A DNA stretch of 64,000 nucleotides from Patescibacteria group bacterium (lineage in GTDB: Bacteria > Patescibacteriota > Patescibacteriia > JAHIZJ01). Below, in pieces: positions 3,125-55,837 of the stretch. Position 1 is the stretch's first letter, and every line of letters starts with the position of its first letter. The DNA lies in contig JBAZUB010000003.1 in the NCBI GenBank assembly GCA_041661625.1, positions 69,004-133,003 of the forward strand, read 5' to 3'. The notes beneath the pieces were generated by a model that worked only from the letters and a program-made list of their open reading frames with translations, was not told where the DNA came from and made no database searches. Made by a program: the position numbers and the translations under genes.

Positions 3125-4294
3125 CTAGCTTCTCTTGAAGAGCAGGACATGCTCATGGGTTATTCTACTATTCCGAACATTGAACGAGCGCTTCGTCGCC
3201 TGAAGCGTACGAATCCATCTCTCTTCCAGAGGCATACCATGATTTCGAAACAGTTTGATGAATGTGTCACCCACAGGCACAGCGCGCTTATTGACGATCG
3301 CATCTCCGACAACAAACAAACACCTGCCACCCGGACGCAACACCCTGGACCACTCGCGCAGGCAATTCTCCATATCGGTAAAGTACTTGTCTGCGGTGGC
3401 CTTCGGCCGGGTGAACTCGTCGTGGCTTCCAATCTCGAGGTCACGAGCAAATGCGACGTCCCCGTCTAACCAGTGAATGCGTTGGCGGTGATACTTGTGA
3501 TAGTCATAGGCGTTCAGGTAAGGAGGCGATGTGACGATCAGAGTCACGCTCCGATCCCGAATGAATGGCACTTTGCGGGCATCAGCCAGCTTGAGTGTCA
3601 CTTTGGCGCGCGGCCCTCGTGGAGCGTCATCCAACCTTCTTACCGTGTCCAGCAGTCGAAGACGGAACAGCGAACCGACGTCCGCAACGGTCACGTCTCG
3701 TGGCACTCGCGCATATCTTGTGTCGCTATCCTGAAAGGAGACGCGCACAATAATGGACGAAAAGATGGACTGAAGCAAAACCTTCTCGGGTTGTTTCTCG
3801 CTAAGTATCAGTCCTTTGAGAGCCGCGAGCCGGTCCATGATGTCCTTGGTGAACCAATAGGGAACATGGTCGTTGCTCGGTATCAACTCCGGCCGGGCAA
3901 CCGCTGCAGTCAGCCAGTTCTCTACGGACTCTGCAAAGATCCGTAAACGGCTGATACTGCGCTTTGTATAGTGAAGAGTCTTGGCTCGGCTCACCAGTAT
4001 AGCAATGTCGTTATTGTCTGTCCCGATTGACGGCCGTCCAAGAATGCTGGCCTCGAGCAAGGTAGTACCGCACCCGCAAAACGGGTCGTATACCAGTTCT
4101 CCGGGCTTGCTCCACTGCTCGATCGCCTTTCGCGGTATCTGCGGAATAAACCGGGCAGGATAGGGATGCAGAGAATGAAGGTGCTCCTGCGTGTCGACAC
4201 CATGGAAATTCCAGCCCTTCCCGTTTGTGACGAGAGCGCCTTCATCTGCTGTTGTGTATATTGCTCGGCGTTCCATGGTTATGCTTTGAAACAC
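3125..4294 (-). CDS. SAM-dependent DNA amino-methyltransferase (N6A/N4C type)
   Basis: Motif-X-like HPYPARFIPQIPRKAI, motif I DPFCGCGTT, motif IV IVTSPPY. Overlaps the upstream MTase gene by 16 nt. Confidence 0.7.
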   Translation of the reverse strand: MFQSITMERRAIYTTADEGALVTNGKGWNFHGVDTQEHLHSLHPYPARFIPQIPRKAIEQWSKPGELVYDPFCGCGTTLLEASILGRPSIGTDNNDIAILVSRAKTLHYTKRSISRLRIFAESVENWLTAAVARPELIPSNDHVPYWFTKDIMDRLAALKGLILSEKQPEKVLLQSIFSSIIVRVSFQDSDTRYARVPRDVTVADVGSLFRLRLLDTVRRLDDAPRGPRAKVTLKLADARKVPFIRDRSVTLIVTSPPYLNAYDYHKYHRQRIHWLDGDVAFARDLEIGSHDEFTRPKATADKYFTDMENCLREWSRVLRPGGRCLFVVGDAIVNKRAVPVGDTFIKLFRNHGMPLEERWIRTLQATKRSFNVRNSRITHEHVLLFKRS

Positions 4295-5898
4295 AAGATT
4301 GTCTCGGCCGACCCCCGATTCTCCCGAAAGATATCACGCGACACTAGCAGCTCCATCGGGATCATTTCAAGGCCCTTCCAGCCAACCTGTTGTCCAATCG
4401 CAAACAGGAATCGGTCGGTAGGAATCTCCACCTTCTCACCGTTTACGGTGCTGCTGTTGTTCCCGACTACATAATACGCGTAGCTCCCCGGGGCCATGAG
4501 TGATCGCGCTGAGCGCATGGCATCGCTCATGGCGAGGAAGTATCGAGCCAGCAACGAGGGCAGGTTACGTCTACGAAAGCCGACATCCGGACCGTGGTTG
4601 TGCGACGCAATTCGCTCGATCAGTGAGATGGTTTCGCGAGGCAGTTCCTTCTTTCGGGTCTCGAACTGGCTCCATCCCTGGAGTCGTTCCTTGTCAGTGA
4701 TCTCTCGCGTGCCTACCATCAAGCTCTCAACATCCCCATGGCGTTGTCGCGAGAGGAGGCCAAGGACGACAAGGCTAAGCCTATCCGTGTCAATGTAAGG
4801 CAAGGCTGTCGCGTATGGAGGCGACGTCACCAGCAAATCGACCTTCCCCACATACTCGGGGAAAAGCTCATCAAGTTGCACCGCGTTGCCCTGCACGACT
4901 TTGAGGGTTCGCTTTCGGGACCGTGGAAGTACACAGAGGTACGGATAGATCCGGTCGGTCTGCTCCTCCACCTGGGTCCGAAACTTCTCCAGTGCTGCTC
5001 CCTGAAGATACGGTCTGACGTCCTTACGAACGCGGAGGTCCACCTCCTTTTGCCAGGATACTGAGCGCACGATCTCGCTCAGGCAGACTCGTAGGAAATC
5101 TCGGTAGAGAGCGGAATCGACTCTTTCTATGCTTCGTAAAATAGCCGCGATGTCCTTGAGGGCGGGTTCTGCAAACCACCGGCGCAGGTACGCAAGATCG
5201 TGCCCTTGCCAGAAGTGGTCGGGTTCGGAGTCCCGGAACTTCAGTTTGCGAAGGTATGCGTCGATGGTCTCGGCGAACACCTCGGGGCGTTCGCGGACAA
5301 TGCCAGCTTTCACCTTGGCAATAAGGACCGAGAGCGGGTTCAGGTCCGCTGCCAAAGCGGCGCGGCCGGCTGCTACTGTCTCGCATGGTGTTGTGCCGCT
5401 GCCGCACATCGGATCGAGGACTAGGCCGTCATCCGGCACCCCGGATATGTTCATCAGACTGCGAACGAGTTGGGGGAAGAACTTCCCCCGATATTCATGC
5501 AGGTCGTGAGGCCCGTAGCGAAGCCTTCGTGCCCGGTGAAGTTCGGTCTTCTCCGTGGTGCTCTCAGATCCGTTCTGAGTGAACTCAAGTGCGTTCTGCA
5601 CCGTAGGTTCAAGAACGGTTGTGCCGACCCGTTGCCAGTAGGTCAGGCGTTCCCGGAAGTACTGAACAGGTCGTCCTGAACGAACAAGGTGAAGGCCATA
5701 CTTCTCGGCAACCGGGCCGTCTCCCTGGAGAAGGGCTTGCAGTTCGCGAGTGGCCAGCTCGCGCTCGAATGGTTGGAGATAGGGTTTCATCTCAAACTTC
5801 AGTGAGTCCTTGTCGTTGGCGAGCAGCAACGGAGGGAAAATCGAAAATCTCCGCTGAATCATGTTCGCGATATCTATTGGCATCATGCGTTTTGGCAT
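4279..5898 (-). CDS. SAM-dependent DNA amino-methyltransferase (N6A/N4C type), second copy
   Basis: LHEYRGKFFPQLVRSL then motif I LDPMCGSGTT, motif IV LLVTSPPY. 539 aa. Overlaps both neighbouring genes by 16 nt. Confidence 0.7.
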   Translation of the reverse strand: MPKRMMPIDIANMIQRRFSIFPPLLLANDKDSLKFEMKPYLQPFERELATRELQALLQGDGPVAEKYGLHLVRSGRPVQYFRERLTYWQRVGTTVLEPTVQNALEFTQNGSESTTEKTELHRARRLRYGPHDLHEYRGKFFPQLVRSLMNISGVPDDGLVLDPMCGSGTTPCETVAAGRAALAADLNPLSVLIAKVKAGIVRERPEVFAETIDAYLRKLKFRDSEPDHFWQGHDLAYLRRWFAEPALKDIAAILRSIERVDSALYRDFLRVCLSEIVRSVSWQKEVDLRVRKDVRPYLQGAALEKFRTQVEEQTDRIYPYLCVLPRSRKRTLKVVQGNAVQLDELFPEYVGKVDLLVTSPPYATALPYIDTDRLSLVVLGLLSRQRHGDVESLMVGTREITDKERLQGWSQFETRKKELPRETISLIERIASHNHGPDVGFRRRNLPSLLARYFLAMSDAMRSARSLMAPGSYAYYVVGNNSSTVNGEKVEIPTDRFLFAIGQQVGWKGLEMIPMELLVSRDIFRENRGSAETILCFKA

Positions 5899-6911
5899 TG
5901 TGACACGTGATATGAAGCGTTGATCGCTTCGATCGGTGTCTTGTCGGATCCAAATGGCAGAGGGATGTCCCGCATTTGAAAAGCGGGAATATCCATCGGC
6001 AGCGTCCTCAAGTGTGATCGATATGCGGCCAGCCTGTCCGAACCAGCGGCGCGTATGGCGTCGTCCGTCTCTCTCAACAGGAGCGTCTCTACCTGGGCCG
6101 AAACCAGTGGCGAATGGATCGGTTTATCGCGAGCCGTTCTCTTAGCCGTGCCCATATAGGCGTCGATCTTGCCAGAAATGGCGAAGTCGCACCATCCGAT
6201 GGGAAGTGCGTCCGCGCAAGCAGCGATGATAGTGCCAATCCCCGGAGGGAAGAGCTCGGCATGCTCCAGTACCAGTAACGCTCGCAGTCGGAAATACTCC
6301 ATACTGATATATCCCAAACGAGGGCACTTTGCCGGGGCGACGATGTCAGTGGCAAGGTCTTCAGCGAGAGTTGGTGTCAGTTGGCCTGCCGAGCGAATGA
6401 CCTCGACGGCCAGCGCCATGGACAGGGTGAGTTCCGATTTCATTCGATGCCGTAGCATCGTCGCGCTGACGTCCTTGTCGTAAATCAGCCCGTCAGTTTG
6501 CCGCTTGTTCAGCAGAAGCGCGGAGTACCTAACGTGATCGATGCCGTTGGGGCGTAGCTGGCGCTCGATCCACCATCGGGTATGAATGGCATGGATGGTT
6601 GGTTGGAGGTACTGTCCTCCGAAGTGGTATAACTGATTGCCGTATTGTTCTGAGTAGGCAACTGGGACATCGTTGACCGTGAGAAGTTCCTCCATGATGC
6701 CGAGCCAGTCGTGCCGAATGTGTCCATCCAATACCAGGTCGATGAGCGACGCCTGCAGGCAGACGGAAGCGGCTGCCAAACCGTGGTCAGCCTGCTGGAT
6801 TGCATTCTCGCGCCATTCTTTCAGGTAAGCGGCATGGATTGGCAGAATGAAGCCCGGAGCTAGCGTGATCTGGGGTGTAATAATGTGTTCAGGCATTGTA
6901 AAAAGCCGCAC
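5883..6911 (-). CDS. Hypothetical protein, 342 aa, third gene of the 4-gene overlapping operon
   Basis: Long ORF, translationally coupled by overlap on both sides. No motif recognised. Confidence 0.5.
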   Translation of the reverse strand: MRLFTMPEHIITPQITLAPGFILPIHAAYLKEWRENAIQQADHGLAAASVCLQASLIDLVLDGHIRHDWLGIMEELLTVNDVPVAYSEQYGNQLYHFGGQYLQPTIHAIHTRWWIERQLRPNGIDHVRYSALLLNKRQTDGLIYDKDVSATMLRHRMKSELTLSMALAVEVIRSAGQLTPTLAEDLATDIVAPAKCPRLGYISMEYFRLRALLVLEHAELFPPGIGTIIAACADALPIGWCDFAISGKIDAYMGTAKRTARDKPIHSPLVSAQVETLLLRETDDAIRAAGSDRLAAYRSHLRTLPMDIPAFQMRDIPLPFGSDKTPIEAINASYHVSQCQNA

Positions 6912-8475
6912 AAGGATCAGGAGCTATCCGGTGAAATACTGCATACATCAGCAAAGGGAAATACCATCTACAGAGAGAGGATGATGCCCAGAAGTCGATA
7001 CGGGCGACGCCGGCTCCGGTGGGCTCGACGTGGGAGTATCTGTCCCCGTAGTTTGCCCGAAGAAGACTCGGTTGTTCGAGGGGCATATCAGCGACGTTGA
7101 GAGCCCACTCCTTTATGGGCAACGATACCTCGATAGTACGGAGTTTGCCGTCACCGCTGTTACCTCCGCGGAGCATCGGCACGCCGTTCTTGAGCGCGGT
7201 CACCACGAGTTCGGGGAAGTACTGGGAACCGACCTTCACTTTCCATGCGTCCAGGCAGTACTGGACCGGAAAGAGGCGTTGTAGCGAGCGGAGCATCAAT
7301 TCAAGACTGGTGCCCTCCGAGGATGTGAATCCCAGAGCGAGCGGACCAGGGCTCGAGTTGAACATCGTTATGAGCTTTTCTTTGGGCGTCGATCCTTCGG
7401 CTAGGTATAGGCCGGCTACATACGACCATAGTGGGTCGATACGAAGCGAGCGGTGAAGTACGACCTCGCTTGATTGTCGCCATTGGCCGACGAGATTATT
7501 GCCTACAGGCGCGAGGCGCAACGGTCGAGTGCAGTTGATTTGACCATAGGGATTATCGGCAAAGAACTGTGCGACGTCAATATGTTCGCCGACCGTGGAA
7601 GGGGTGGCGGCCCATTGGACCAGGCCCGAGCTCGAGGTCTGAGAGTCGCTCAGAATCGAGTCCTCGACCTCATGCATCATCTTCAGGAACAATTCCCCAA
7701 TACCGTTAAGACCGCCGACACCGAGTTCATCCGATCTGCTGGAGCCTCCTGGAAGTCTTGCGCCCTTCTTGAATGGTCGACGGACTGACGCGGCGACTTT
7801 GATATCCGGGCCGATGGGAATGCCGACGGCAGCTATTTGGGCCGTCTTTTCACGCGCGAGAATAATCTCCATCGCGGTCTTGTGCTGGTAGTAGAAAGAA
7901 AGGTGCTCTTCAGGGGTGCCAGGAACGTCCGGGCGCACTTCGGCCAAGTACCGCGAGTCTGGGTCCGTAAGTCTGGCGCGCACTGTGGCGAGGGGGACGG
8001 GAGCAGGGACGTCCGAATTGGCTGTTTCCCGATAATACAATCGGAGCCTATCGGCACCGACGCCGTCCATGAAGTAGGCACTATCCTCGCCAAGGTAGAA
8101 TGTGAAGCGGACCTGGCTCGGAAAGAATTTGCGGAACTGGTCGACCGCAAAACGGATGAGATTCTGTTCCTTTTGGGAAAAGGAAATCGTAGGGACGATC
8201 CGAGTGGTGTCGTGCCTGTCCTCAGACCCTTTCGCTCCGTCACCGCTATAGAGCCCCAAGAAGGCGACCAGCTCTTCATCGAGCTCGACTGTGCGCGGAA
8301 TCGTGACCGTATCGCCGAAGCCATCCTCGCGGCGCAGGACGAGGTTCTCACCCTCAATCGCGAAGGAATACCGCTGGCGGTACTTCCGGTCCTTCGCATC
8401 CGTGATGACGCTCCCGGTGACGAGCCCCTGTACTGCGATCAAGTATTGTTCTGTTCGTAGGTGTCCTAGAATCAC
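6889..8475 (-). CDS. Hypothetical protein, 528 aa, with two LAGLIDADG-like motifs (possible nuclease)
   Basis: FLGLYSGDG at about aa 72-80 resembles an intein/I-DmoI motif 1. VAGLYLAEGS at about aa 353-362 resembles I-DmoI motif 2 GLYVAEG. First gene of the operon, with a 320-bp intergenic region upstream. Confidence 0.45.
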   Translation of the reverse strand: MILGHLRTEQYLIAVQGLVTGSVITDAKDRKYRQRYSFAIEGENLVLRREDGFGDTVTIPRTVELDEELVAFLGLYSGDGAKGSEDRHDTTRIVPTISFSQKEQNLIRFAVDQFRKFFPSQVRFTFYLGEDSAYFMDGVGADRLRLYYRETANSDVPAPVPLATVRARLTDPDSRYLAEVRPDVPGTPEEHLSFYYQHKTAMEIILAREKTAQIAAVGIPIGPDIKVAASVRRPFKKGARLPGGSSRSDELGVGGLNGIGELFLKMMHEVEDSILSDSQTSSSGLVQWAATPSTVGEHIDVAQFFADNPYGQINCTRPLRLAPVGNNLVGQWRQSSEVVLHRSLRIDPLWSYVAGLYLAEGSTPKEKLITMFNSSPGPLALGFTSSEGTSLELMLRSLQRLFPVQYCLDAWKVKVGSQYFPELVVTALKNGVPMLRGGNSGDGKLRTIEVSLPIKEWALNVADMPLEQPSLLRANYGDRYSHVEPTGAGVARIDFWASSSLCRWYFPLLMYAVFHRIAPDPCAAFYNA

Positions 8476-8797
8476 AGCATCTGTTCCTGTTTAGTATTAA
8501 TAGCCGGCCTGATCCGACCATTCCTTGGCGAAGACGCCGGATATGCTACTGGTCCAAGGCGACCGCCTGTCACCCCTCATGTCGAATCTTCCTGAAGCCC
8601 CTCCAAGCCCATCCCAAGGACTGGGTCGGAATGGCGCGCCGCAGGACATCGGAAGTGGCGCAAGTTACAAAAAATCATCAGCTTACGCCTCTTTATCATA
8701 CCGATTTGTTCGAGCCTAGTCAATCTGCCACAACTCCGTAAGTTAGCGCAACTCAATAGAAAGAGGCTGGTCCTTCGGGGAGCAGCCTCATGGTGGA

Positions 8798-9526
8798 TCA
8801 GAGCGCGAGTGCGCTCCGGAAGGTGCTGGAGAGTCGGAGCCCGGAGTCCATTTGGACCCGCGGACTCCGGGACTTGCTGACTTCGGTGAAGGCGTTGTAG
8901 AGCGACCAGGCGGTCCGGGGAGCAAACTCCTCGTGGGCGGGCGTCTCCCACGCCTCGATCACCTTCGGGAGGTTCGAGGCTGGCAGGACGTCCTGCCGGA
9001 CGGCCTCGACCATGAGGTGGTCAGCCGCCTCGACGGAAAGCTCAAGCGCCTTCATCGCCACGATTTCGGCGTGGATCCGGCTCTGCATTGAGGAGACCTT
9101 CGAGAGCATGCGGTAGATCAGGTCCGGAAGATCCCGAAAGATGTTGATGGTGTGCCTGCGGGTCGCGGCGGCCTCTCCAGAGAAGGCGAGGTTGTCGCAG
9201 ACGAAGACGTGGTGGCCGGCGGTGAGATTTGCAGAGAGGGACCGGTCGTAGCTGTTTCGGAGACCGATCGCGAGGGCGTAGTCGGCGTGCTTCCCGCCGT
9301 TCCGGCAGGTCAGTACCCCGAACATCTGGGCGCCGTCGCGGGCAAGCGCGTAGCAGGCATCGGTGATCGTGAGGCCGAAGCGCGGAACATGGAGTTCGAC
9401 TTCCTCGACGAACCGGCCGTAGGGCACCGGGACGTAGGAGTCGGTTTCGGAAGGAACAGGGACGGAAGCCAGGTCGGCTTTGGTCGCCTCCCAACCTCCG
9501 CGATGGAGAATGAGCTGACTGGACAT
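8798..9526 (-). CDS. Conserved hypothetical protein typical of integrative/conjugative elements (DUF932-like?)
   Basis: 242-aa ORF containing HHVFVCDNLAFSG. The family assignment is from memory only. Confidence 0.35.
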   Translation of the reverse strand: MSSQLILHRGGWEATKADLASVPVPSETDSYVPVPYGRFVEEVELHVPRFGLTITDACYALARDGAQMFGVLTCRNGGKHADYALAIGLRNSYDRSLSANLTAGHHVFVCDNLAFSGEAAATRRHTINIFRDLPDLIYRMLSKVSSMQSRIHAEIVAMKALELSVEAADHLMVEAVRQDVLPASNLPKVIEAWETPAHEEFAPRTAWSLYNAFTEVSKSRSPRVQMDSGLRLSSTFRSALAL

Positions 9527-9551: not shown

Positions 9552-10235
9552 TCAGATCAGACCGCGTTCACGAAACGACAGGTAGGAGCCGCCGGCGCCG
9601 ATGATCACGTGGTCGATGACCTCGATGCCGAGCATCTCGCCGGTGCGGACCAGCCGATGGGTCATCTCGACGTCGTCTTCCGACGGTTCGGGGTCGCCTG
9701 ACGGGTGGTTATGAGCCAGGAGCATGGAGGCGGCCGCCGCCTGGATGGCGGGTCGGAACACCTCCCGAGGATGGACGATCGATGCATTGAGGCTTCCCAC
9801 ACTCACCGTCTCGAACTTCAGGAGGCGGTGCCGGGTGGTGAGCAGAAGCGTGACGAACATCTCGCGCTTCAAGTCTCCCAGGACGGGACCGACGACCTGC
9901 ACGGCGTCCTGCGCCGTGCGGATGATGAGGTTCTGTTCGGTACGAGGAACGGCTGCGCGGCGCGAGAGCTCGAACGCAGCGAGCACCTGGGTCGCCCGGC
10001 GCCGTCCGATCCCCGGGATCGCGACCAGGTCGGCTGTCCCGGCGTCGGCGATGACATCGAGCGAGCCGAATCGGGAGAGCAACGCCGCGGCCGCGTTTCC
10101 GGAGCAGAGCACGGCGGAAAGCAGGCGCGTCACGGGCCAAGACCGGCAGTCTTCCCGACAGTGGATCAACGGGTCCTCCAGCATCGGGATTGCGGGATCG
10201 ATCATGTGAGCCTCCTTCTTCCGGCAAACGCTCAT
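9552..10235 (-). CDS. radC: RadC-like JAB/MPN domain protein
   Basis: N-terminal HhH (LLSRFGSLDVIADAGTADLVAIPGIGRRRA) and JAMM motif LLAHNHPSGDPEPSEDD. Confidence 0.85.
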   Translation of the reverse strand: MSVCRKKEAHMIDPAIPMLEDPLIHCREDCRSWPVTRLLSAVLCSGNAAAALLSRFGSLDVIADAGTADLVAIPGIGRRRATQVLAAFELSRRAAVPRTEQNLIIRTAQDAVQVVGPVLGDLKREMFVTLLLTTRHRLLKFETVSVGSLNASIVHPREVFRPAIQAAAASMLLAHNHPSGDPEPSEDDVEMTHRLVRTGEMLGIEVIDHVIIGAGGSYLSFRERGLI

Positions 10236-10321: not shown

Positions 10322-11080
10322 TTACCCGCGCCACTGTTGGCAATGAGCGAAGTACTCACACTCGGAGCAGCGATACGAAGGATTCGGGAAGCAGCAACCG
10401 GACTGGATAGCCAGAGCCACGCTTTCGATCAGCCGGGCGGTCCAGGCAAGGTCCTCAATTGTGCGGGTGGCAGGCAGGTGCACCAAGCGCGGGACCTTGG
10501 TCTTCAGAAGCGCGTCAATGCGGAGAGGTGGAACCGTTCCGGTTGCGAGGAAACGAACGAGCGCGTAGGTGGAAAGCTGGAGGTGTCGTTCGAGCGAACC
10601 CGTGTCGAAGGTCCGGGCGGCAGTCTTGAGTTCCACGAGCGTGCCGTCCGCCTCGACCAGATCAATCACCCCGCGCAGTCGGATGTCGAACACTTCACCG
10701 GTTTCGGGATCCACGAGGTCGATCTCGAAGCGGTCCTCGGTCAGGAGCGGCATTGTGCCGGATGAATCCGCGACATACAGAGCAACGAGTTCGTGACCCT
10801 TCTCCGCGAGGATCTCCTTGGATTCCTTCTCGGCGAACACCACGGGCTCGAGGTTCTGTGCGAACCAGTCGGCATCGAAGATCTTCGCGACCGCCTCCGG
10901 TTCCGGCGTGCGTCCGGCCAGCCGTTCGCGGTGGAACCACTCTACGGCAGCATGGACGGAAGAGCCGAACACCAGCGCGGCAGGCCGCCAGGGCGGCGGG
11001 ATCTTGTCGATGTACTGGAAACGGTGCTTGAGTGGACAGGTGAGGTAGGTCTGAACCCGGCTAACGCTGAGGGGCTCCAT
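10322..11080 (-). CDS. Cas4/RecB-like PD-(D/E)XK exonuclease with Fe-S Cys cluster
   Basis: N-terminal YLTCPLKHRFQY, core IDLVEADGTLVELK, C-terminal CCFPNPSYRCSECEYFAHC. Overlaps the upstream recT-like gene by 20 nt. Confidence 0.7.
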   Translation of the reverse strand: MEPLSVSRVQTYLTCPLKHRFQYIDKIPPPWRPAALVFGSSVHAAVEWFHRERLAGRTPEPEAVAKIFDADWFAQNLEPVVFAEKESKEILAEKGHELVALYVADSSGTMPLLTEDRFEIDLVDPETGEVFDIRLRGVIDLVEADGTLVELKTAARTFDTGSLERHLQLSTYALVRFLATGTVPPLRIDALLKTKVPRLVHLPATRTIEDLAWTARLIESVALAIQSGCCFPNPSYRCSECEYFAHCQQWRG

Positions 11081-12904: not shown

Positions 12905-13405
12905 TCAGGCGGCCGTGGCCTGATGGTGAAGAGCGAGGGCGACGGCGTCGAACATGTTCTGGAAGTACGCTTCCTTCCAGCGGCGGTCTTGCGTGAGATA
13001 GACCCGCAGGGCGGGCAGGCGTCCGGCGACAGCCTCGGCCGTCTGGCGTTTGTTCGCCCAGCCGTGGCCGACGAGGCCCTTGCGGACGGTCTGGGGCGCG
13101 TATGTCGCGACCGTCAGCCCTTTCAGGGCAGCCATGCGGCGAACCCGACGGGCCAGACGGTCCAGCCGATCCAAGGAGTTCACGCGGTTCGGGTGGGTGG
13201 CTTCAAGGACGACGATCGAGGGTCTGAACTGACCGATCCAGTCGCCGATGGCCTTCACGGCGGCGGGGAGGCGCTGCTTCGATGGCAGCAACCGGAGCGG
13301 GAGGACTCCCGACTCGATCAGGGATCCTCCTCGGAGAATGGCGTACCCGAGGTCCCGGAGGCCGGGATCAAGGGCGAGGATCGTCTTCGCTGTGGCTTTG
13401 GGCAT
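12905..13405 (-). CDS. RuvC-like Holliday-junction resolvase, copy 2 (paralog)
   Basis: ILALDPGLRDLGYAIL, IVVLEAT, MFDAVALALHH. Start reassigned to the ATG at 13405; the track start at 13558 adds an implausible extension. Confidence 0.6.
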   Translation of the reverse strand: MPKATAKTILALDPGLRDLGYAILRGGSLIESGVLPLRLLPSKQRLPAAVKAIGDWIGQFRPSIVVLEATHPNRVNSLDRLDRLARRVRRMAALKGLTVATYAPQTVRKGLVGHGWANKRQTAEAVAGRLPALRVYLTQDRRWKEAYFQNMFDAVALALHHQATAA

Positions 13406-13922
13406 GGCGTTTGAGTAGATAAAGAAATAAAGCTGTGCGTGAGCGGCGGATCTCGGCCGCCGGAACGGCGAGGGTGCCGGCGAGCGCGCGTTTGATGATC
13501 GCGTCGTCGTGGAGCTCAAGCGCCGATTCGAGCGCTCCACGGTCCCCGTTCTCCCCAAGTGCTCGCTCCAGCTTCCCGATGGTGAAGAACCGTTTGATTT
13601 CCGGCGGCGATTCAGCCTGCGCCGGCAGCTGGGGAAGGTGCCGGACAGTCACGCGAACGGTTTGTCCGGAACGCTGGAGCCTCACATAGCGACGCGTTCG
13701 GAGATGGCCAAGCCAGCTTCGGACGGTTCCGTCGGGGAGCCCCATGGCGGAGGCGATCTCCGCCGTGTCCAGCTCCAGCGTGTTCTGGCCGGCGGGCAGT
13801 CGGACCAGAAGTCCGAGGTAGAGCCAGACGGCCGACCGCATCCGGCGGATGTGGAGCGCCTGCGGGTGCTCCAAGAGTCCTCGGTCGAGTCGGATTATAA
13901 TGGGCATCGGGTTTCGGGTCAT
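13368..13922 (-). CDS. Winged-helix DNA-binding protein (replication/regulatory), paralog A
   Basis: HTH IASAMGLPDGTVRSWLGHLRTRRYV. C-terminal motif IRRSRTALFLYLLKRH is shared with the next gene. Confidence 0.5.
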   Translation of the reverse strand: MTRNPMPIIIRLDRGLLEHPQALHIRRMRSAVWLYLGLLVRLPAGQNTLELDTAEIASAMGLPDGTVRSWLGHLRTRRYVRLQRSGQTVRVTVRHLPQLPAQAESPPEIKRFFTIGKLERALGENGDRGALESALELHDDAIIKRALAGTLAVPAAEIRRSRTALFLYLLKRHAQSHSEDDPRP

Positions 13923-15245: not shown

Positions 15246-16760
15246 TTGCCTTCCTATATCCTCTATGCGCGCAAGTCCTCCGAATCGGAGGATCGTCAAG
15301 TTCTCTCCATCGATTCGCAAGTCCGCGAATTGGAGGCCTTCGCGCAATCCCAGAACTTCACGGTTGCCTCGGTCCTGGCTGAGTCCCGCTCGGCCAAGGC
15401 CCCCGGCCGGCCGATCTTCGCGAAGATGCTCCGATCCGTCAGCCAGGGAAAGGCCGACGGCATCCTCTGCTGGAAGCTCGACCGCCTCGCCAGAAACCCG
15501 GTCGACGGGGCCGCCCTCATCTGGGCGGTCGACGAAGGCAAGCTCCGGGAGATTGTCACCCGGGACCGGGCCTTCCAGAACACCGGGAATGACAAGTTCT
15601 GGATGCAGCTCGAGTTCGGCATGGCCAAGAAGTACGTGGACGATCTCTCCGACAATGTCAAACGCGGCAACCGAGCCAAACTGGAGCAGGGCTGGCTCCC
15701 GGGGCTGCCCCCAATCGGGTATCTGAACGACGCGGTGACGCGGAAGATCGTTCGCGATCCGGACCGGTTCGACATTCTGCGGAAGATCTGGGACGCCGTG
15801 CTGGCCGGTGAGTCTCCCCTCGAAGTGCTTTCGACCGCCACCGACGAGTGGGGGTTACGCACGCGAAAACACCGGCGCACGGGGGGTAAGCCGCTCGGCC
15901 GGAGCAACTTCTATGTCATGCTCTCCAACCCATTCTACTATGGGCTGCTTGTTCGCAACGGTGAGTCCTATCCTGGATCGCACCCTCCCATGATCTCGCA
16001 GGACGAGTTCGACCGCGTCCAGGAGCTACTCGGCCGTCCGAATCGGGCACCGCAACGGCGGCACGAATTCGCCTTCACGGGACTGATCCGCTGCGAGGAG
16101 TGCGGCGCTTCGATCACCGCCGCGGAGACGGTGAATCGGTACGGCTACCACTACGCCTACTACCACTGCACGAAACGGAAGGCCGGCACTTCCTGCAGAC
16201 AGATGCCGATCCGCGAGGAAAAGCTGGAAACACAGATCCGCGAGGTATTGAGCCAGGTGGCCATTGACGACGACTATCGCGACTGGGCTTTGGAGAACCT
16301 TCGGATTGTCCACGAACGGGAAAGCAAGAGCCGGCAAACGGTGGACCGTTCCCTGGACGAGACTCACCGGGACGTTCAGAAGCAGATCGACGCGCTCCTC
16401 CAGGTCCGCCTCCGTGGATTGGTCACCGACGAGGAATATGCCGCCAAGAAGCACTCTCTTGTTTCCGAGAGCCTTCGATTGAAGGAACGCCTCGTCGACA
16501 CCGATGGCCGAGCCACCCGTGGGTTGAAACTTTTCGAGCAAGCGATATTGTTCGCACACCTAGCCCCGAAACGCTTCGCGGAGGGAACAACCGCGGAGAA
16601 GCGCGAGATTCTCATGGCCCTCGGTTCCAACCTCTTGCTCAAGGACAGAACTCTGCGAATCCAACTGCAAAAACCCTTCCACCTGATCGGGGAAGGGCGG
16701 CACAGTATTTCCTGGTACCGGAGGAGGGACTTGAACCCTCAATCCCTTACGGGAACGTGA
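15246..16760 (+). CDS. Large serine recombinase (integrase)
   Basis: Resolvase-domain catalytic region YARKSSESEDRQVLSIDSQ, recombinase domain, zinc ribbon CEECGASI...YHCTKRK, C-terminal coiled-coil region. TTG start. The last about 16 codons are encoded by the tRNA-Leu sequence. Confidence 0.85.
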   Translation: MPSYILYARKSSESEDRQVLSIDSQVRELEAFAQSQNFTVASVLAESRSAKAPGRPIFAKMLRSVSQGKADGILCWKLDRLARNPVDGAALIWAVDEGKLREIVTRDRAFQNTGNDKFWMQLEFGMAKKYVDDLSDNVKRGNRAKLEQGWLPGLPPIGYLNDAVTRKIVRDPDRFDILRKIWDAVLAGESPLEVLSTATDEWGLRTRKHRRTGGKPLGRSNFYVMLSNPFYYGLLVRNGESYPGSHPPMISQDEFDRVQELLGRPNRAPQRRHEFAFTGLIRCEECGASITAAETVNRYGYHYAYYHCTKRKAGTSCRQMPIREEKLETQIREVLSQVAIDDDYRDWALENLRIVHERESKSRQTVDRSLDETHRDVQKQIDALLQVRLRGLVTDEEYAAKKHSLVSESLRLKERLVDTDGRATRGLKLFEQAILFAHLAPKRFAEGTTAEKREILMALGSNLLLKDRTLRIQLQKPFHLIGEGRHSISWYRRRDLNPQSLTGT

Positions 16761-16799
16761 TTTTGAGTCACGCGCGTATGCCAATTCCGCCACTCCGGC
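16713..16799 (-). tRNA. tRNA-Leu (anticodon CAA), 87 nt including encoded CCA
   Basis: The reverse complement gives GCCGGAGTGGCGGAATTGGCATACGCGCGTGACTCAAAATCACG...GGGTTCAAGTCCCTCCTCCGGTACCA. It has a long variable arm and a T-loop TTCAAGT. G1-U72 is a wobble pair at the acceptor end facing the island. Confidence 0.85.
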
Positions 16800-51322: not shown

Positions 51323-54300
51323 ATGGGAGGACCAATACCAAAAACTAACCAAAAATACTGGAGAGGCTTTGTGCTGGGAGCCGGCATCTGGTGTCTGCTG
51401 CTTTTGGCCGTTATTCTAGTCTGGCCGTACCGATTTGCCTGGGCGGCGACTTTTGACAGTAATACCGGTAGTGCTCTGGGCTTAGGTACGGTGCCGTTGG
51501 ACCAGGTAGTACGGAACATTATCCGCTGGGCGCTGGGATTTTTGGGTCTGATCGCGGTGATTATGGTCATTTATGGCGGCTTTTTGTGGATGACCGCGGC
51601 GGGCAATGAGCAGCGGATCGAAAAGGCCAAGAAGATTATCATGGGCGCGATCATTGGCCTGGTTATAATATTGTTGTCTTTCGCCATAGTGCAGTTTGTA
51701 TTTTTCGGTGTGACAAATTCTACCGGAAACGGAAATGACAATACTAACGGCGGCCCACCGCCGGATGGTGGTGATAGCGCTCAGTTCTATGTCCGGCTCG
51801 TCTCACCGCACGAGGATGAAGACAATGTTTCATTATGCCGCTTCGTTCAGGGCGTATTTAACCGCCAGATCAACCAATCGACTGGCGCACTGACACTGAC
51901 CCAGGTGGACAATGGCCAAGCAGTCGCGGGCGCCATCACCTACCAGGATGGCAATAAGATAAAACTGGACCCGAGCGCCGATCTGGCTCCGCAAAAACAA
52001 TACCGCGCTTTAATACCCGACACAGTCGAGGATTCATCCGGCAATCAGCTGGATCAGCAGAAAGAGTGGTATTTTACGACCGGTTCCGAGTCGGATAATG
52101 AGCCGCCGCGGGTATTTGATACCTGGCCCGATACGGGCGCGACGGATATCTGCCTGTCCACGCCGATTGTGGTCGAGTTTAATGAACCGATGGATCTGTC
52201 TACTCTGATTGTGGCCAATGTCACGGTCGCCGGTCCCGGCAACCCGCAGGTCAGGTCGGTGGATATTCCCAACGATCGCACAATGGCGATCACATTGAAT
52301 TCGCCCTTGGAACCCAACCAGGATTACACGGTGACTTTAAACGGCGCGCCGGGGCATATTGCCGATGCCTGCGGTAATCCACTGGACGGTAATGGCGACG
52401 GTACGGGCGGTGATAATTATGACTGGTCATTTACGACCGGCATTGGCGCTGATTGCGCCCCCAAGATCAACTCGATCAGCGGATCGGGCTACTATGAGAC
52501 CGACGTGACGATCGAGGGCACGAATTTTACCAGCATTCCCACCACGACGGTGTTTAATAACGACGCTACGGCTTTTAATAACTGTTTCAATGCCAGCTAT
52601 ATTCCTAACGCGGTTTGTGTCAAAGAGTGGACTAATACGCGTATTAAAGTCACCCTACCGGCCAGCGGCGGCGCCAGCAACGGCGCCATCGACGGTCTGG
52701 TTAAGGTTAGGGTAGGTGCGCTGGAAAGCAACGGCAAGGATTTTGACGTCAAGGCGCCGCACGTCAGCCAGGTCAACCCGGCCAGCGGCGGACCGGGGCA
52801 ATTCGTCACCATCACGGGAACAAATTTCGGCAGCAGCGCCGGCCGGGTGCTATTCCGCAAGACCGGTGATCCGGATATCGAGGGTGATCGGCCATCCTGC
52901 TCGTCTTGGTGGCAAAATGATCAGATTATTGTCAAAGTACCGGAAGGTTTCAGCCTCAATGACGTTACACAAATACAGATTGATACTTCGGGCAACCGCC
53001 GTTCCAATCTGGAAGATTTTCAAATAACGAACCAAGTTGGGCCGGGATTATGTTCGATCACCCCGGCTTGCGGTGGTGCGGATACTGATGTCACATTAAT
53101 CGGCGAGGCATTAGGCGGCGCCGGCCAGCTGAAATTCGACGGTACAACGGCTGACACCACGGTCTGGACCGAAGGCCAGATCAAGGGCAAGGTACCGGAT
53201 ATCGCCGACAGCGTAAATCCTTATTCGGTCACCGCGACTGTCGGCGGACTGGTCAGCAATGGGCTGCCATTCCACAAACCCTGTGGAACCGGCGATGATG
53301 GCGAACACCGCGCCTGCGCTGGCGCTACTTGTATCACCGCTTCCGGTGAGGCGCCCGATGAATGCGCTAACGACTCGCAATGTACCGGCACAAACACTCA
53401 CTCAGAATGCGCCGGCGCGATGTGCAACGTAGTTGATGGCGCGGGCGCCAATCAATGCGACACACCCGATGACTGTGATGGCGAACACCGGGCTTGTGCC
53501 GGTACCAGCTGTATAACCGTTTCGGGCGAAGCGGCCGACGAATGTACCGACGATTCGCAATGTACAGACGCGAATACCCACTCGGAATGCGCCGGCGCGA
53601 TGTGCAACGTAGTTGATGGCGCGGGCGCCAATCAATGCGACACACCCGATGACTGTGATGGCGAACACCGGGCTTGTGCCGGCACAACCTGTATTACCGC
53701 CTCAGGCGAAGCCCCAGACGAGTGTTCCAATGATTCCCAGTGCACCGACGCGAATACCCACTCGGAATGCGCCGGCGCGATGTGCAACGTAGTTGATGGC
53801 GCGGGCGCCAATCAGTGTGCCGTGCCGGATGACTGTGCCGGATCGGGTACGGACTGCGACTCCGACCCTGCTACGCCGGCTTGCCAGCCAGGCGCCTGCC
53901 CTGTGGGAGAAACTTGCCGCGATACAGATTGCCGTTGTTGGGTATTGCCCTCCTATGCCTGCAGTACTACCCAGTGGAGCTGCACGCCCAATCCGGCGGG
54001 TTGCGCTGCTACGCAAGGATGTTTGAATGATTGTTCTTGCGCCGACAGGCCAACGTTGACGAGCAGCATTCCTGCGAATCTCAGTGTCGACATATGTCGC
54101 AATGTTCAGTTCAGCTGGACTTTTTCGGAGACAATGAGCGGTTCTTCGGCTGACAATGATGCTATTCAGCTAACGATCGATGGCGGAGCCGCGGCAGGTG
54201 CTGCATGCAGCGTGGACAAAGATTGCGCATCGGATAATTGCAGCAGCAATCTCTGTGTCGGCAGCGTAGTCAGGGGTAGCTACTCCCAGCCATCCGATAA

Positions 54301-55837
54301 GCACAACATCTATGGAAACTTTGGCTTACTGGAGGCTGACACGGATTATCGAACCAAACTGCTGGGTTTGGCCAACGGTGTTTTGAGCACCGACGGTTTG
54401 GGTATGACCAGCGATGTCGAGTATACGTTCAAAACCTCCACCGCGATTTGTGATGTCAATCAAGTTAGGGTCGATCCGAGCAGTTGGCAATTTGTCCAGC
54501 GGGATGCCTCGAGGATGTTTACCGCTTCGGCTTACCATGGCGACCAGATGATCCTGTCCATTCCCGGTGTGTATGAATACAATTGGACTTGGTCAACGGA
54601 TGACGCCACGATTATAGTTGTCGGTCCGATCAATGTTGCGGCGACGGTGGGAACCATCCAAAACAAGAACGGCAGCACCCGAATCAACGCCAAGGCTTCC
54701 GTGACTACCCCCGGCAAGGAAAAGGAGGTTACCGGCCGGGCGGAAATACGGGTCAATATGTGCGAACACCCCTGGCCCGATCCGGGTGCCGGATTATTCG
54801 TGCCATTTACCGATGCTGACACGCACTTTTCTTTCTGGTACTGCACTGACGATGGATTGCCGATGATTACAAATGTTACCAATGGATCCAGCGGTGCTGA
54901 CCTAATCAAGGAATATTTCTTTAATGGTTTGCATGTCTGTGAGGGCGCGGCCAAAGCCTGCACGGTAGACGCGGATTGTGACGGCATGGCCTGCACGGTG
55001 CTGCCGGATGCGGTTGGCGTACGTGTAATGACGAACCCGAATAGTCAATCACCCAAACTTTGGTATGAAAAAAGATTACCCAATGAGCCGATCCCCAGCG
55101 GCGCCGAGCGGACCATTGATGGTTTTCAGTCCATTCGAGTCGGTCGGACTAGCTATGTCGATGCGGCTAATTCCTACTTTGATGGTGCCTGGCATACTTA
55201 TACCAATATTTATCTACTGTCCTTCAGTGAGAATTCGAAATCTGTAACCCAGGAGGTAGCCAACGCATTGATCGGGAACTGGAAATTTGTCACCAATGCG
55301 GGTGTTGATTTTGGCGATTTTGCCAAACCCTGGCTGATACGTGACACCAAGCGGTTGGCCGACTTAGCCGATATTGAGCACTATCTGGACGATTATCGGG
55401 CTACCAGTAGCACCTATCCCAATCTGCAAGCCGGCAGCTATCTAACACGACGGTCCACTAGCGCCTGGCCATCATGGCAAGCTTCCTTGGGTAACGCATT
55501 GGGCAAGGGATTGCCCACTGACCCGTTGAACTTGTTTTTGTACGGCTCCGGCCCGGGTACGTGTGAGGTGCCGCCGTATGATCACGATACCTGTTGGTGG
55601 GGCAATAAGACTCTGTACCCGACTGACGGTGGCCGGTTCACCTGCCAGGCCAACTCGCATGTTTATATGTACAATTTCGTTCCCGATCCGGCCGACCCCG
55701 CGCTCGATAAGTCCTATTTGTACACGATGCTAGAATATCCGCAATGGGGTGCGCTGGCACCAGCTAATCCATGTGCCGGTTTAGCCGATGGCTCTAGTTG
55801 CGCTTGCTTTAATTACACCAGAGAAGTCACACCATAA
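51323..55837 (+). CDS. Giant (1504 aa) cell-surface protein: signal peptide, VirB2/TrbC-pilin-like two-helix N-terminal module, Ig-like/beta-rich region, three Cys-rich 60-aa tandem repeats
   Basis: AWA|A signal peptidase site. IYGGFLWMTAAGNEQRIEKAKKIIMGAIIGLVIILLSFAIVQFVF. Repeats DGEHRACAG.CIT.SGEA.DEC..DSQCT..NTHSECAGAMCNVVDGAGANQC..PDDC. Confidence 0.7.
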   Translation: MGGPIPKTNQKYWRGFVLGAGIWCLLLLAVILVWPYRFAWAATFDSNTGSALGLGTVPLDQVVRNIIRWALGFLGLIAVIMVIYGGFLWMTAAGNEQRIEKAKKIIMGAIIGLVIILLSFAIVQFVFFGVTNSTGNGNDNTNGGPPPDGGDSAQFYVRLVSPHEDEDNVSLCRFVQGVFNRQINQSTGALTLTQVDNGQAVAGAITYQDGNKIKLDPSADLAPQKQYRALIPDTVEDSSGNQLDQQKEWYFTTGSESDNEPPRVFDTWPDTGATDICLSTPIVVEFNEPMDLSTLIVANVTVAGPGNPQVRSVDIPNDRTMAITLNSPLEPNQDYTVTLNGAPGHIADACGNPLDGNGDGTGGDNYDWSFTTGIGADCAPKINSISGSGYYETDVTIEGTNFTSIPTTTVFNNDATAFNNCFNASYIPNAVCVKEWTNTRIKVTLPASGGASNGAIDGLVKVRVGALESNGKDFDVKAPHVSQVNPASGGPGQFVTITGTNFGSSAGRVLFRKTGDPDIEGDRPSCSSWWQNDQIIVKVPEGFSLNDVTQIQIDTSGNRRSNLEDFQITNQVGPGLCSITPACGGADTDVTLIGEALGGAGQLKFDGTTADTTVWTEGQIKGKVPDIADSVNPYSVTATVGGLVSNGLPFHKPCGTGDDGEHRACAGATCITASGEAPDECANDSQCTGTNTHSECAGAMCNVVDGAGANQCDTPDDCDGEHRACAGTSCITVSGEAADECTDDSQCTDANTHSECAGAMCNVVDGAGANQCDTPDDCDGEHRACAGTTCITASGEAPDECSNDSQCTDANTHSECAGAMCNVVDGAGANQCAVPDDCAGSGTDCDSDPATPACQPGACPVGETCRDTDCRCWVLPSYACSTTQWSCTPNPAGCAATQGCLNDCSCADRPTLTSSIPANLSVDICRNVQFSWTFSETMSGSSADNDAIQLTIDGGAAAGAACSVDKDCASDNCSSNLCVGSVVRGSYSQPSDKHNIYGNFGLLEADTDYRTKLLGLANGVLSTDGLGMTSDVEYTFKTSTAICDVNQVRVDPSSWQFVQRDASRMFTASAYHGDQMILSIPGVYEYNWTWSTDDATIIVVGPINVAATVGTIQNKNGSTRINAKASVTTPGKEKEVTGRAEIRVNMCEHPWPDPGAGLFVPFTDADTHFSFWYCTDDGLPMITNVTNGSSGADLIKEYFFNGLHVCEGAAKACTVDADCDGMACTVLPDAVGVRVMTNPNSQSPKLWYEKRLPNEPIPSGAERTIDGFQSIRVGRTSYVDAANSYFDGAWHTYTNIYLLSFSENSKSVTQEVANALIGNWKFVTNAGVDFGDFAKPWLIRDTKRLADLADIEHYLDDYRATSSTYPNLQAGSYLTRRSTSAWPSWQASLGNALGKGLPTDPLNLFLYGSGPGTCEVPPYDHDTCWWGNKTLYPTDGGRFTCQANSHVYMYNFVPDPADPALDKSYLYTMLEYPQWGALAPANPCAGLADGSSCACFNYTREVTP
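53297..53836 (+). repeat. 3 x 180-bp in-frame tandem DNA repeats inside the giant surface-protein gene; about 105 nt are identical between successive copies
   Basis: Period exactly 180 bp (53477 to 53657). Confidence 0.85.

Follow-up and report, generated by a model that had tools for sequence, protein, structure and literature searches.

A mobile four-gene cassette of two amino-methyltransferases, a predicted LAGLIDADG-fold protein and a predicted alpha/alpha-toroid protein as a candidate Type II-like restriction-modification system

What system is encoded by an operon in which two DNA methyltransferase genes are coupled to two genes whose products are recognised by no family in Pfam, PADLOC, NCBIfam or PHROGs? 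The question is raised by positions 3125-8475 of a 64,000-nucleotide stretch of DNA from a Patescibacteria group bacterium (contig JBAZUB010000003.1), which was analysed at its full length and is referred to below as the window. An earlier note on this stretch had described four tightly packed open reading frames (ORFs) on the minus strand, with coordinates and lengths that proved exact, and had proposed a restriction-modification-like module. The genes are here named R (528 amino acids, aa), T (342 or 337 aa), MA (539 or 535 aa) and MB (389 aa), the alternative lengths reflecting different start codons. Our analysis argues, with moderate confidence, that the operon is a Type II-like restriction-modification defence system composed of a nuclease with a predicted LAGLIDADG fold, a predicted toroid partner and two methyltransferases. 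The four genes are as follows.

6889..8475, minus strand: R, 528 aa, candidate restriction subunit, predicted to be a LAGLIDADG-fold endonuclease with two motifs
5883..6896, minus strand: T, a 337-aa protein predicted to be an alpha/alpha toroid of the prenyltransferase/terpene-cyclase type (longest ORF 5883-6911, 342 aa)
4279..5886, minus strand: MA, a 535-aa amino-methyltransferase, identified by the profile PDLC03377 and its motifs (longest ORF 4279-5898, 539 aa)
3125..4294, minus strand: MB, a 389-aa amino-methyltransferase, identified by N6_N4_Mtase, PDLC03364 and its motifs

Overlaps of 16, 16 and 23 nucleotides (nt) had been given for the three junctions, and these figures hold for the longest possible ORFs. 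With the starts that are supported by homologs and by the public gene call, the junctions become tighter while the genes remain coupled. The R/T junction, ATGCCTGA, then spans an 8-nt overlap in which T begins at 6896 (337 aa); the T/MA junction is an ATGA, and MA begins at 5886 (535 aa). MB starts either with GTG at 4294, giving a 16-nt overlap with MA, or with ATG at 4276, 2 nt past the MA stop codon.

Translation of MA and MB confirmed all of the methyltransferase motifs that had been read from the sequence. The F.PQ(I/L) segment lies at residue 49 of MB and residue 140 of MA. In MB, motif I (DPFCGCGTT) is encoded at 4061-4087 and the TSPPY of motif IV at 3518-3532; in MA, motif I (DPMCGSGTT) is encoded at 5389-5415 and TSPPY at 4813-4827, about 190 residues apart. 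MB matches Pfam N6_N4_Mtase (1.8e-21) in a circularly permuted arrangement, with motifs X and I at the N-terminus and motif IV about 185 residues later. Both proteins match PADLOC MTase_II profiles over their full length, MB to PDLC03364 (2.2e-50, residues 27-387) and MA to PDLC03377 (1.4e-52, residues 42-536); these profiles are derived from REBASE and represent Type II DNA methyltransferases. Both are likewise labelled DNA methyltransferase by PHROGs. The nearest solved relatives, a Thermus putative modification methylase and N4-cytosine methyltransferases, are matched over the motifs only. Motif I and (T/C)SPPY are kept in every homolog examined, at 32 loci for MA and 31 for MB.

The earlier note had named an RNA methyltransferase identity, established by profile search, as the result that would speak against this assignment. 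The profile search returned UPF0020, Trm14 and RlmL matches confined to some 30-45 residues surrounding motif I, with a score of 35 bits against an NCBIfam cut-off of 280 bits. Since these matches are limited to the motif I segment, the RNA-methyltransferase alternative was rejected, and the reading of MA and MB as DNA methyltransferases stands. By their profile matches, the two proteins are paralogs, both of them SPPY amino-methyltransferases that belong to REBASE-type Type II families. The SPPY signature favours N4-cytosine methylation among amino-methyltransferases, and the product of MA and MB is probably N4-methylcytosine, with N6-methyladenine as the alternative.

The two remaining proteins had been described as carrying no recognisable nuclease signature. 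For R this is incorrect, as its translation contains two LAGLIDADG-type motifs, each of which ends a predicted helix.

8227..8256, minus strand: LAGLIDADG-type motif 1, GLYSGDGAKG, with D79 and K82, at the C-terminus of helix 67-79
7381..7413, minus strand: LAGLIDADG-type motif 2, GLYLAEGSTPK, with E360 and K365, at the C-terminus of helix 348-360

A public protein search with R gave 368 matches, all named 'hypothetical protein', with a mean column identity of 71%. A profile search of 1.84 billion representative proteins retrieved only the R family and divergent relatives of 464-566 aa. Both motifs are invariant in 79 close homologs, and D79 and E360 are invariant in these, in 20 distant relatives and in all fetched loci. 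The pattern G-x-Y-x-G-D-G-x-K is kept in all loci, including a divergent clade in which R is only 25-28% identical. Relatives at 24-41% identity keep Y76, G78, D79, G80, K82, G355, Y357, A359, E360 and G361, together with about 15 further positions. The active site of LAGLIDADG enzymes is defined by the acidic residue that stands last but one in each motif, together with a lysine close by, and in the non-catalytic relative WhiA the metal-binding acidic residues are lost (Taylor and Stoddard, PMC3384342).

The AlphaFold (AF2) model of R has a mean predicted local distance difference test (pLDDT) score of 89.6 and a predicted template modelling (pTM) score of 0.89, and was aligned to I-DmoI over 168 of the 183 residues of I-DmoI. 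Outside this core, R has two beta-rich modules of about 65 residues (1-66 and 286-346) and a helical insertion of about 85 residues (132-216). Alignment of the N-terminal and C-terminal halves by hhalign placed motif on motif, SFSQKE on FTSSEG and FRKFFP on LQRLFP, although it was not significant (E 0.15). The SFSQKE segment presumably resembles the region around Q47 of I-CreI, a likeness that serves as a lead only. Faint matches to Pfam LAGLIDADG_3 were obtained for 3 of 21 relatives (E 0.045-0.29), falling exactly on motif 2. R is thus predicted to be a single-chain, pseudo-dimeric LAGLIDADG-fold protein in which the catalytic-type residues are retained.

The model also contains a Gly-rich loop, LRGGNSGDGKLRT, at R residues 430-447 (window positions about 7135-7188). 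It is the only segment with pLDDT below 50, and its residues G438, G441 and G443 are invariant down to 24% identity. The segment is probably flexible and functional, making contact with DNA or with a partner.

For T, a public protein search gave 221 matches on the same contigs as R, and the source names seen were all 'hypothetical protein'. The window protein has no match in Pfam, and phmmer and profile searches against PDB sequences gave no match either. The predicted structure is all-helical (pLDDT 86.6) and has the form of an alpha/alpha toroid of the prenyltransferase/terpene-cyclase type, at 8-13% identity to any toroid enzyme. The corresponding partner proteins of the divergent clade match PF00432 in two of five cases (best E 1.9e-8). 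The invariant charged residues R149, H150, R151, K153, D245 and R253, and the invariant F315 and G316, fall in three low-confidence loops of the T model; these loops may be surfaces that become ordered only upon partner binding. Inspection of the invariant residues by eye revealed neither a DxDD motif nor an obvious Asp/Cys/His zinc triad.

The association of the four genes was analysed by tblastn comparison of loci drawn from protein homologs, one plasmid, 24 species genomes and one viral contig (loci are designated by L numbers). All four genes are present in 24 of the 25 loci with sufficient flanking sequence, spanning more than 10 phyla, and their order is nearly always R-T-MA-MB. The phyla include Proteobacteria, Bacillota, Bacteroidota, Chloroflexota, Nitrospirota, Poribacteria, Latescibacterota and Bdellovibrionota, and the sources include Acidithiobacillus, Klebsiella variicola, Sideroxydans, Alicyclobacillus, Priestia, Lachnospiraceae, Nitrospiraceae, Anaerolineae, Chloroflexia and Bdellovibrionales. 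Partial cassettes were found on cut-off contigs from Lyngbya, Myxococcales and a Thermoplasmatota archaeon, the last with R and a partial MB-like match. The T gene always lies directly downstream of R and is co-directional with it, and R and T remain adjacent where the methyltransferase genes have been rearranged: MB is inverted in L010, L012 has the methyltransferase pair upstream, and L020 has it in convergent orientation. The methyltransferase pair moves as a unit relative to R-T.

A metagenome scan seeded with the divergent R clade recovered the same four components in all five divergent-clade loci that were long enough to judge. These encode an R-like protein of 464-503 aa, a partner of 347-373 aa directly downstream, and both methyltransferases. 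A single gene encodes MB followed by MA in two divergent-clade loci, L034 (9517-12348, minus strand, 943 aa) and L039 (4099-6834, plus strand, 911 aa), and these fusions are Rosetta-stone evidence for joint action of the two proteins. From the paralogy of MA and MB, their constant adjacency and the natural fusions, we infer that they act jointly on one asymmetric site, each on one strand. As to arrangement, the unfused divergent loci (L031, L033 and L038) likewise have MB ahead of MA, with the pair convergent with R-T, and the fused gene of L039 lies upstream of R-T on the same strand.

The neighbours of the cassette in other genomes include KwaAB (Kiwa), GmrSD, McrBC, Abi-type AIPR/AbiJ genes, AAA_15/SMC-like ATPases, and conjugation and integration genes. 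A megablast search of plasmids with the operon gave no match, and tblastn with R gave a single plasmid match, in Priestia. The anti-defence alternative that the earlier note had allowed for found no support: tblastn with R against 50,697 phage records gave no match, and viral contigs yielded one locus in 2.9 million. With the cassette virtually absent from viral collections, a phage anti-defence module was rejected as an interpretation. PADLOC-DB v2 returned generic MTase_II matches and a weak mad2 match for the operon, all on the methyltransferase domains, leaving R and T unmatched. Membership in BREX, DISARM or MADS was likewise rejected, as the operon gives no matches specific to these systems.

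Two loci show decay of the cassette. R is split into three ORFs in L024, where T, MA and MB are intact, and R and T are truncated in L028, where both methyltransferases are intact. This is the usual decay pattern of restriction-modification systems, and the loss of R with the methyltransferases intact marks R as the costly component.

The restriction-modification-like module put forward in the earlier note is supported by the methyltransferase profiles, the nuclease-like predicted fold of R, the conservation of the cassette and its defence neighbours. In the mechanism that we propose, MA and MB would each methylate one strand of one asymmetric site, and R would act as the restriction nuclease, using its two putative active sites to make a double-strand break in target DNA that lacks this methylation. 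DNA modified by MA and MB would be protected from R. We tentatively assign T the role of a non-nuclease subunit that would bind R and on which R would depend for its activity, its stability or the reading of its target. The operon would ride on mobile islands and defend either the islands or the host against unmethylated incoming DNA.

Several observations weigh against this proposal. The fold of R is assigned from a predicted structure and one search method. R itself has no match to Pfam LAGLIDADG families even at E 10, phmmer and profile searches of R against PDB sequences gave nothing relevant, and Foldseek comparison of the R model with the PDB gave nothing significant, the best LAGLIDADG match having an E of 1.5 and the top matches, cyanuric acid hydrolases at E of about 0.8, being meaningless. 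The Foldseek result may be due to the interruption of the core by the beta-modules and the helical insertion. T is without a known counterpart in restriction-modification systems, and comparison of the T family with the divergent-clade partners by hhalign is marginal (E 1e-3, probability 20%); their homology is supported by fold and position, not by sequence. R is also the best conserved of the four proteins, with a mean identity to the window protein of 57%, compared with 52% for MB, 49.5% for MA and 41.5% for T, which is atypical for restriction enzymes.

Two further difficulties concern the action of R. Classical LAGLIDADG enzymes recognise sites of 14-40 bp, and a restriction site has to be short to be useful; one of 14-40 bp would be too rare for phage defence and hard to reconcile with protection by ordinary methyltransferases. 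The beta-modules and T may have re-tooled recognition by R, although this is speculation. In addition, an isolate genome, Lachnospiraceae strain MSK.15.233, contains a locus (L015, 6375-8755) in which R is intact with all its motifs, while T, MA and the N-terminal half of MB have been deleted. This would be unexpected if R alone were lethal, and suggests that R alone is tolerated. Possible explanations are that R needs T, that protecting methyltransferases are present elsewhere in the genome, or that the deletion is very recent.

Other interpretations of the cassette were weighed against these data. The cassette could be mainly a selfish addiction or homing element, in which R cuts one rare long site in cassette-free genomes or kills cells that lose the cassette. 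The classical members of the LAGLIDADG family are homing endonucleases that recognise long sites (PMC3384342), the spread across phyla at 49-68% identity implies intense horizontal transfer, and in the window the operon sits on an integrative island with a serine recombinase. We nevertheless consider this interpretation unlikely, since homing needs no methyltransferases and yet two are strictly retained and sometimes fused, the insertion contexts vary and are defence islands rather than one conserved target gene, and there is no intron or intein context. Its chemistry is the same as that of the restriction-modification reading, and only the selective benefit differs. A non-cleaving R, acting as a WhiA-like DNA-binding regulator or target-recognition module, with T or a host factor as the effector and the methyltransferases as an epigenetic or exclusion device, appears improbable. 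WhiA has lost its acidic residues (PMC3384342), yet D79, E360, K82 and K365 of R are invariant down to 24% identity; the loss of R with retention of the methyltransferases in L024 and L028 suggests that R is costly or toxic; and T, the proposed effector, is without a nuclease-like fold.

The toroid fold is common to prenyltransferase, terpene-cyclase, LanC and glycosidase families, and T could be an active enzyme or a small-molecule sensor, in a system that makes or reads an extra DNA modification or gates the nuclease on a metabolite. This would be surprising given that T has only 8-13% identity to any enzyme, that its invariant residues, inspected by eye only, include no DxDD motif or obvious zinc triad, and that no further biosynthetic gene is conserved in the cassette; we regard it as very unlikely. 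Least credible, to a degree that makes it hardly worth entertaining, is that MA and MB form a self-standing modification module to which R and T, for which no family is annotated, are unrelated cargo adjoining by chance: of the 25 evaluable loci, from more than 10 phyla, 24 have the four genes together, the association recurs in the divergent clade despite rearrangements, and the gene junctions overlap.

The setting of the operon in the window is that of a mobile island, which spans roughly 1-16.8 kb. The guanine-cytosine (GC) content of the operon block is 0.561. Its two flanks within the island have values of 0.612 and 0.619, and the remaining window has 0.485. The block is therefore lower in GC than its flanks, as the earlier note had pointed out, although its actual range is 54-58% and not the 50-55% given there. 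Other features of the island are listed below.

8695..8723, minus strand: sigma-70-like promoter candidate TTGACT-17-TATGAT, agreeing with the consensus at 10 of 12 positions, in the 322-bp gap that precedes the first gene
8798-9526: DUF932 gene, island cargo adjoining the operon
9552-10235: RadC-like JAB gene with helix-hairpin-helix (HhH), island cargo
10322-11080: PD-(D/E)XK nuclease gene, island cargo
12905-13558: RuvC-like resolvase gene, island cargo
15246-16760, plus strand: large serine recombinase, 504 aa, with Resolvase, Recombinase and Zn_ribbon_recom domain matches
16713-16799, minus strand: tRNA-Leu(CAA), abutting or overlapping the serine recombinase gene

The promoter candidate is a consensus match only, and such sites are no commoner in the region than in shuffled sequence. 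In the metagenomic locus L004, a 74-aa ribbon-helix-helix gene (7790-8014) overlaps the start of the R homolog, and its product may be a C-protein-like controller; the window contains no equivalent ORF upstream of R.

The cargo genes between 8798 and 13558 (DUF932, RadC, PD-(D/E)XK and RuvC-like) form a set that is typical of integrative or conjugative elements. Near 16.8 kb, at the recombinase and tRNA-Leu genes, the GC content falls from about 0.61 to about 0.485; this step is probably the right end of an integrative island, with the left end lying beyond the window start. Outside the island, the window encodes the housekeeping proteins ParA, TopA, Mfd, Der, HisRS and FtsA. The housekeeping part also encodes a 1504-aa protein (51323-55837) with a T4SS-pilin N-terminus and Big_5/TIG domains; together with the GC content of 48.5%, this would fit a Patescibacteria host. 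Proteins 100% identical to R and T have been deposited under a 'Patescibacteria group bacterium' metagenome-assembled genome. The island exceeds the remaining window by 13 GC points, which suggests that it was transferred horizontally very recently or else that the assembly is chimeric.

If the predicted structures are borne out, what is new here is that the nuclease of a restriction-modification system has a new fold and is accompanied by an accessory subunit without precedent. The literature searched, which did not extend to REBASE and much of the subscription-journal literature, mentioned neither restriction enzymes nor defence systems of the LAGLIDADG type, and described no role for a prenyltransferase-like toroid in defence or restriction-modification. 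It is conceivable, though rather doubtful, that R and T represent a new class of restriction nuclease, in which a LAGLIDADG scaffold has been re-tooled by beta-modules and an obligate toroid for a short methylatable site, with the toroid licensing cleavage via the methylation state, a flipped base or a small molecule. Restriction enzymes have been assigned to five folds, namely PD-(D/E)XK, HNH, GIY-YIG, PLD and half-pipe, with no LAGLIDADG among them (Orlowski and Bujnicki, PMC2441816). Such a class, if real, would add a sixth catalytic fold to restriction enzymes and give the toroid family its first DNA-related role. Naming the family would add a widespread defence system that is unlabelled by PADLOC, Pfam and NCBIfam. 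The family could also be a source of single-chain enzymes that are naturally sensitive to methylation and have two active sites, which would be of interest as rare cutters or nickases, and the conserved toroid partner is a testable mechanistic problem.

Among known restriction systems, the closest in layout are the Type IIT and IIS enzymes BbvCI, Bpu10I, BsrDI and BtsI, which have asymmetric sites and two methyltransferases, with PD-(D/E)XK-type catalytic subunits, and in which both other genes encode nuclease subunits. The operon has the same layout of two methyltransferases and two further genes, and the logic of one methyltransferase per strand fits, the comparison being made from general knowledge. 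Heterodimers such as BbvCI and Bpu10I have two related catalytic subunits, whereas the predicted folds of R and T are unrelated and both putative active sites lie in R. The two-subunit nuclease that the earlier note had considered possible is therefore unlikely, and a BbvCI-like pair of catalytic subunits was rejected, T being a predicted alpha/alpha toroid without nuclease similarity. As in Type II restriction-modification systems generally, intact methyltransferase motifs are accompanied by a linked gene for a nuclease, a role that here falls to R by inference; the predicted fold of R is none of those catalogued for restriction enzymes. T shares its predicted alpha/alpha toroid with prenyltransferase beta subunits and class II terpene cyclases (PF00432), and neither an alpha subunit nor isoprenoid pathway genes lie nearby.

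R itself is best compared with the LAGLIDADG enzymes. With monomeric LAGLIDADG endonucleases such as I-DmoI it shares the predicted core fold, in which two helices each end in an acidic residue and Gly, and the single-chain pseudo-two-fold arrangement. Members of that family are recognised by a significant match to Pfam LAGLIDADG_1, LAGLIDADG_2 or LAGLIDADG_3 or to a solved chain, and R gives none; the core enzymes are about 180-250 aa in length, whereas R has 528 aa with its extra beta-modules and helical insertion. LAGLIDADG homing endonucleases are encoded in group I introns or inteins or by free-standing homing genes directed at their own insertion site, and cleave in a Mg2+-dependent manner to leave 4-nt 3' overhangs; R is instead always found in the four-gene methyltransferase operon, in varied contexts. 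In WhiA/DUF199 the acidic residues are lost, while R keeps D79, E360, K82 and K365 and is without a detected helix-turn-helix. The LAGLIDADG fold has been ascribed to homing endonucleases, WhiA being an offshoot without catalytic activity, and the HNH, GIY-YIG and PD-(D/E)XK folds are already common to homing endonucleases and restriction enzymes; a methyltransferase-linked LAGLIDADG family would bridge to restriction enzymes in the same way.

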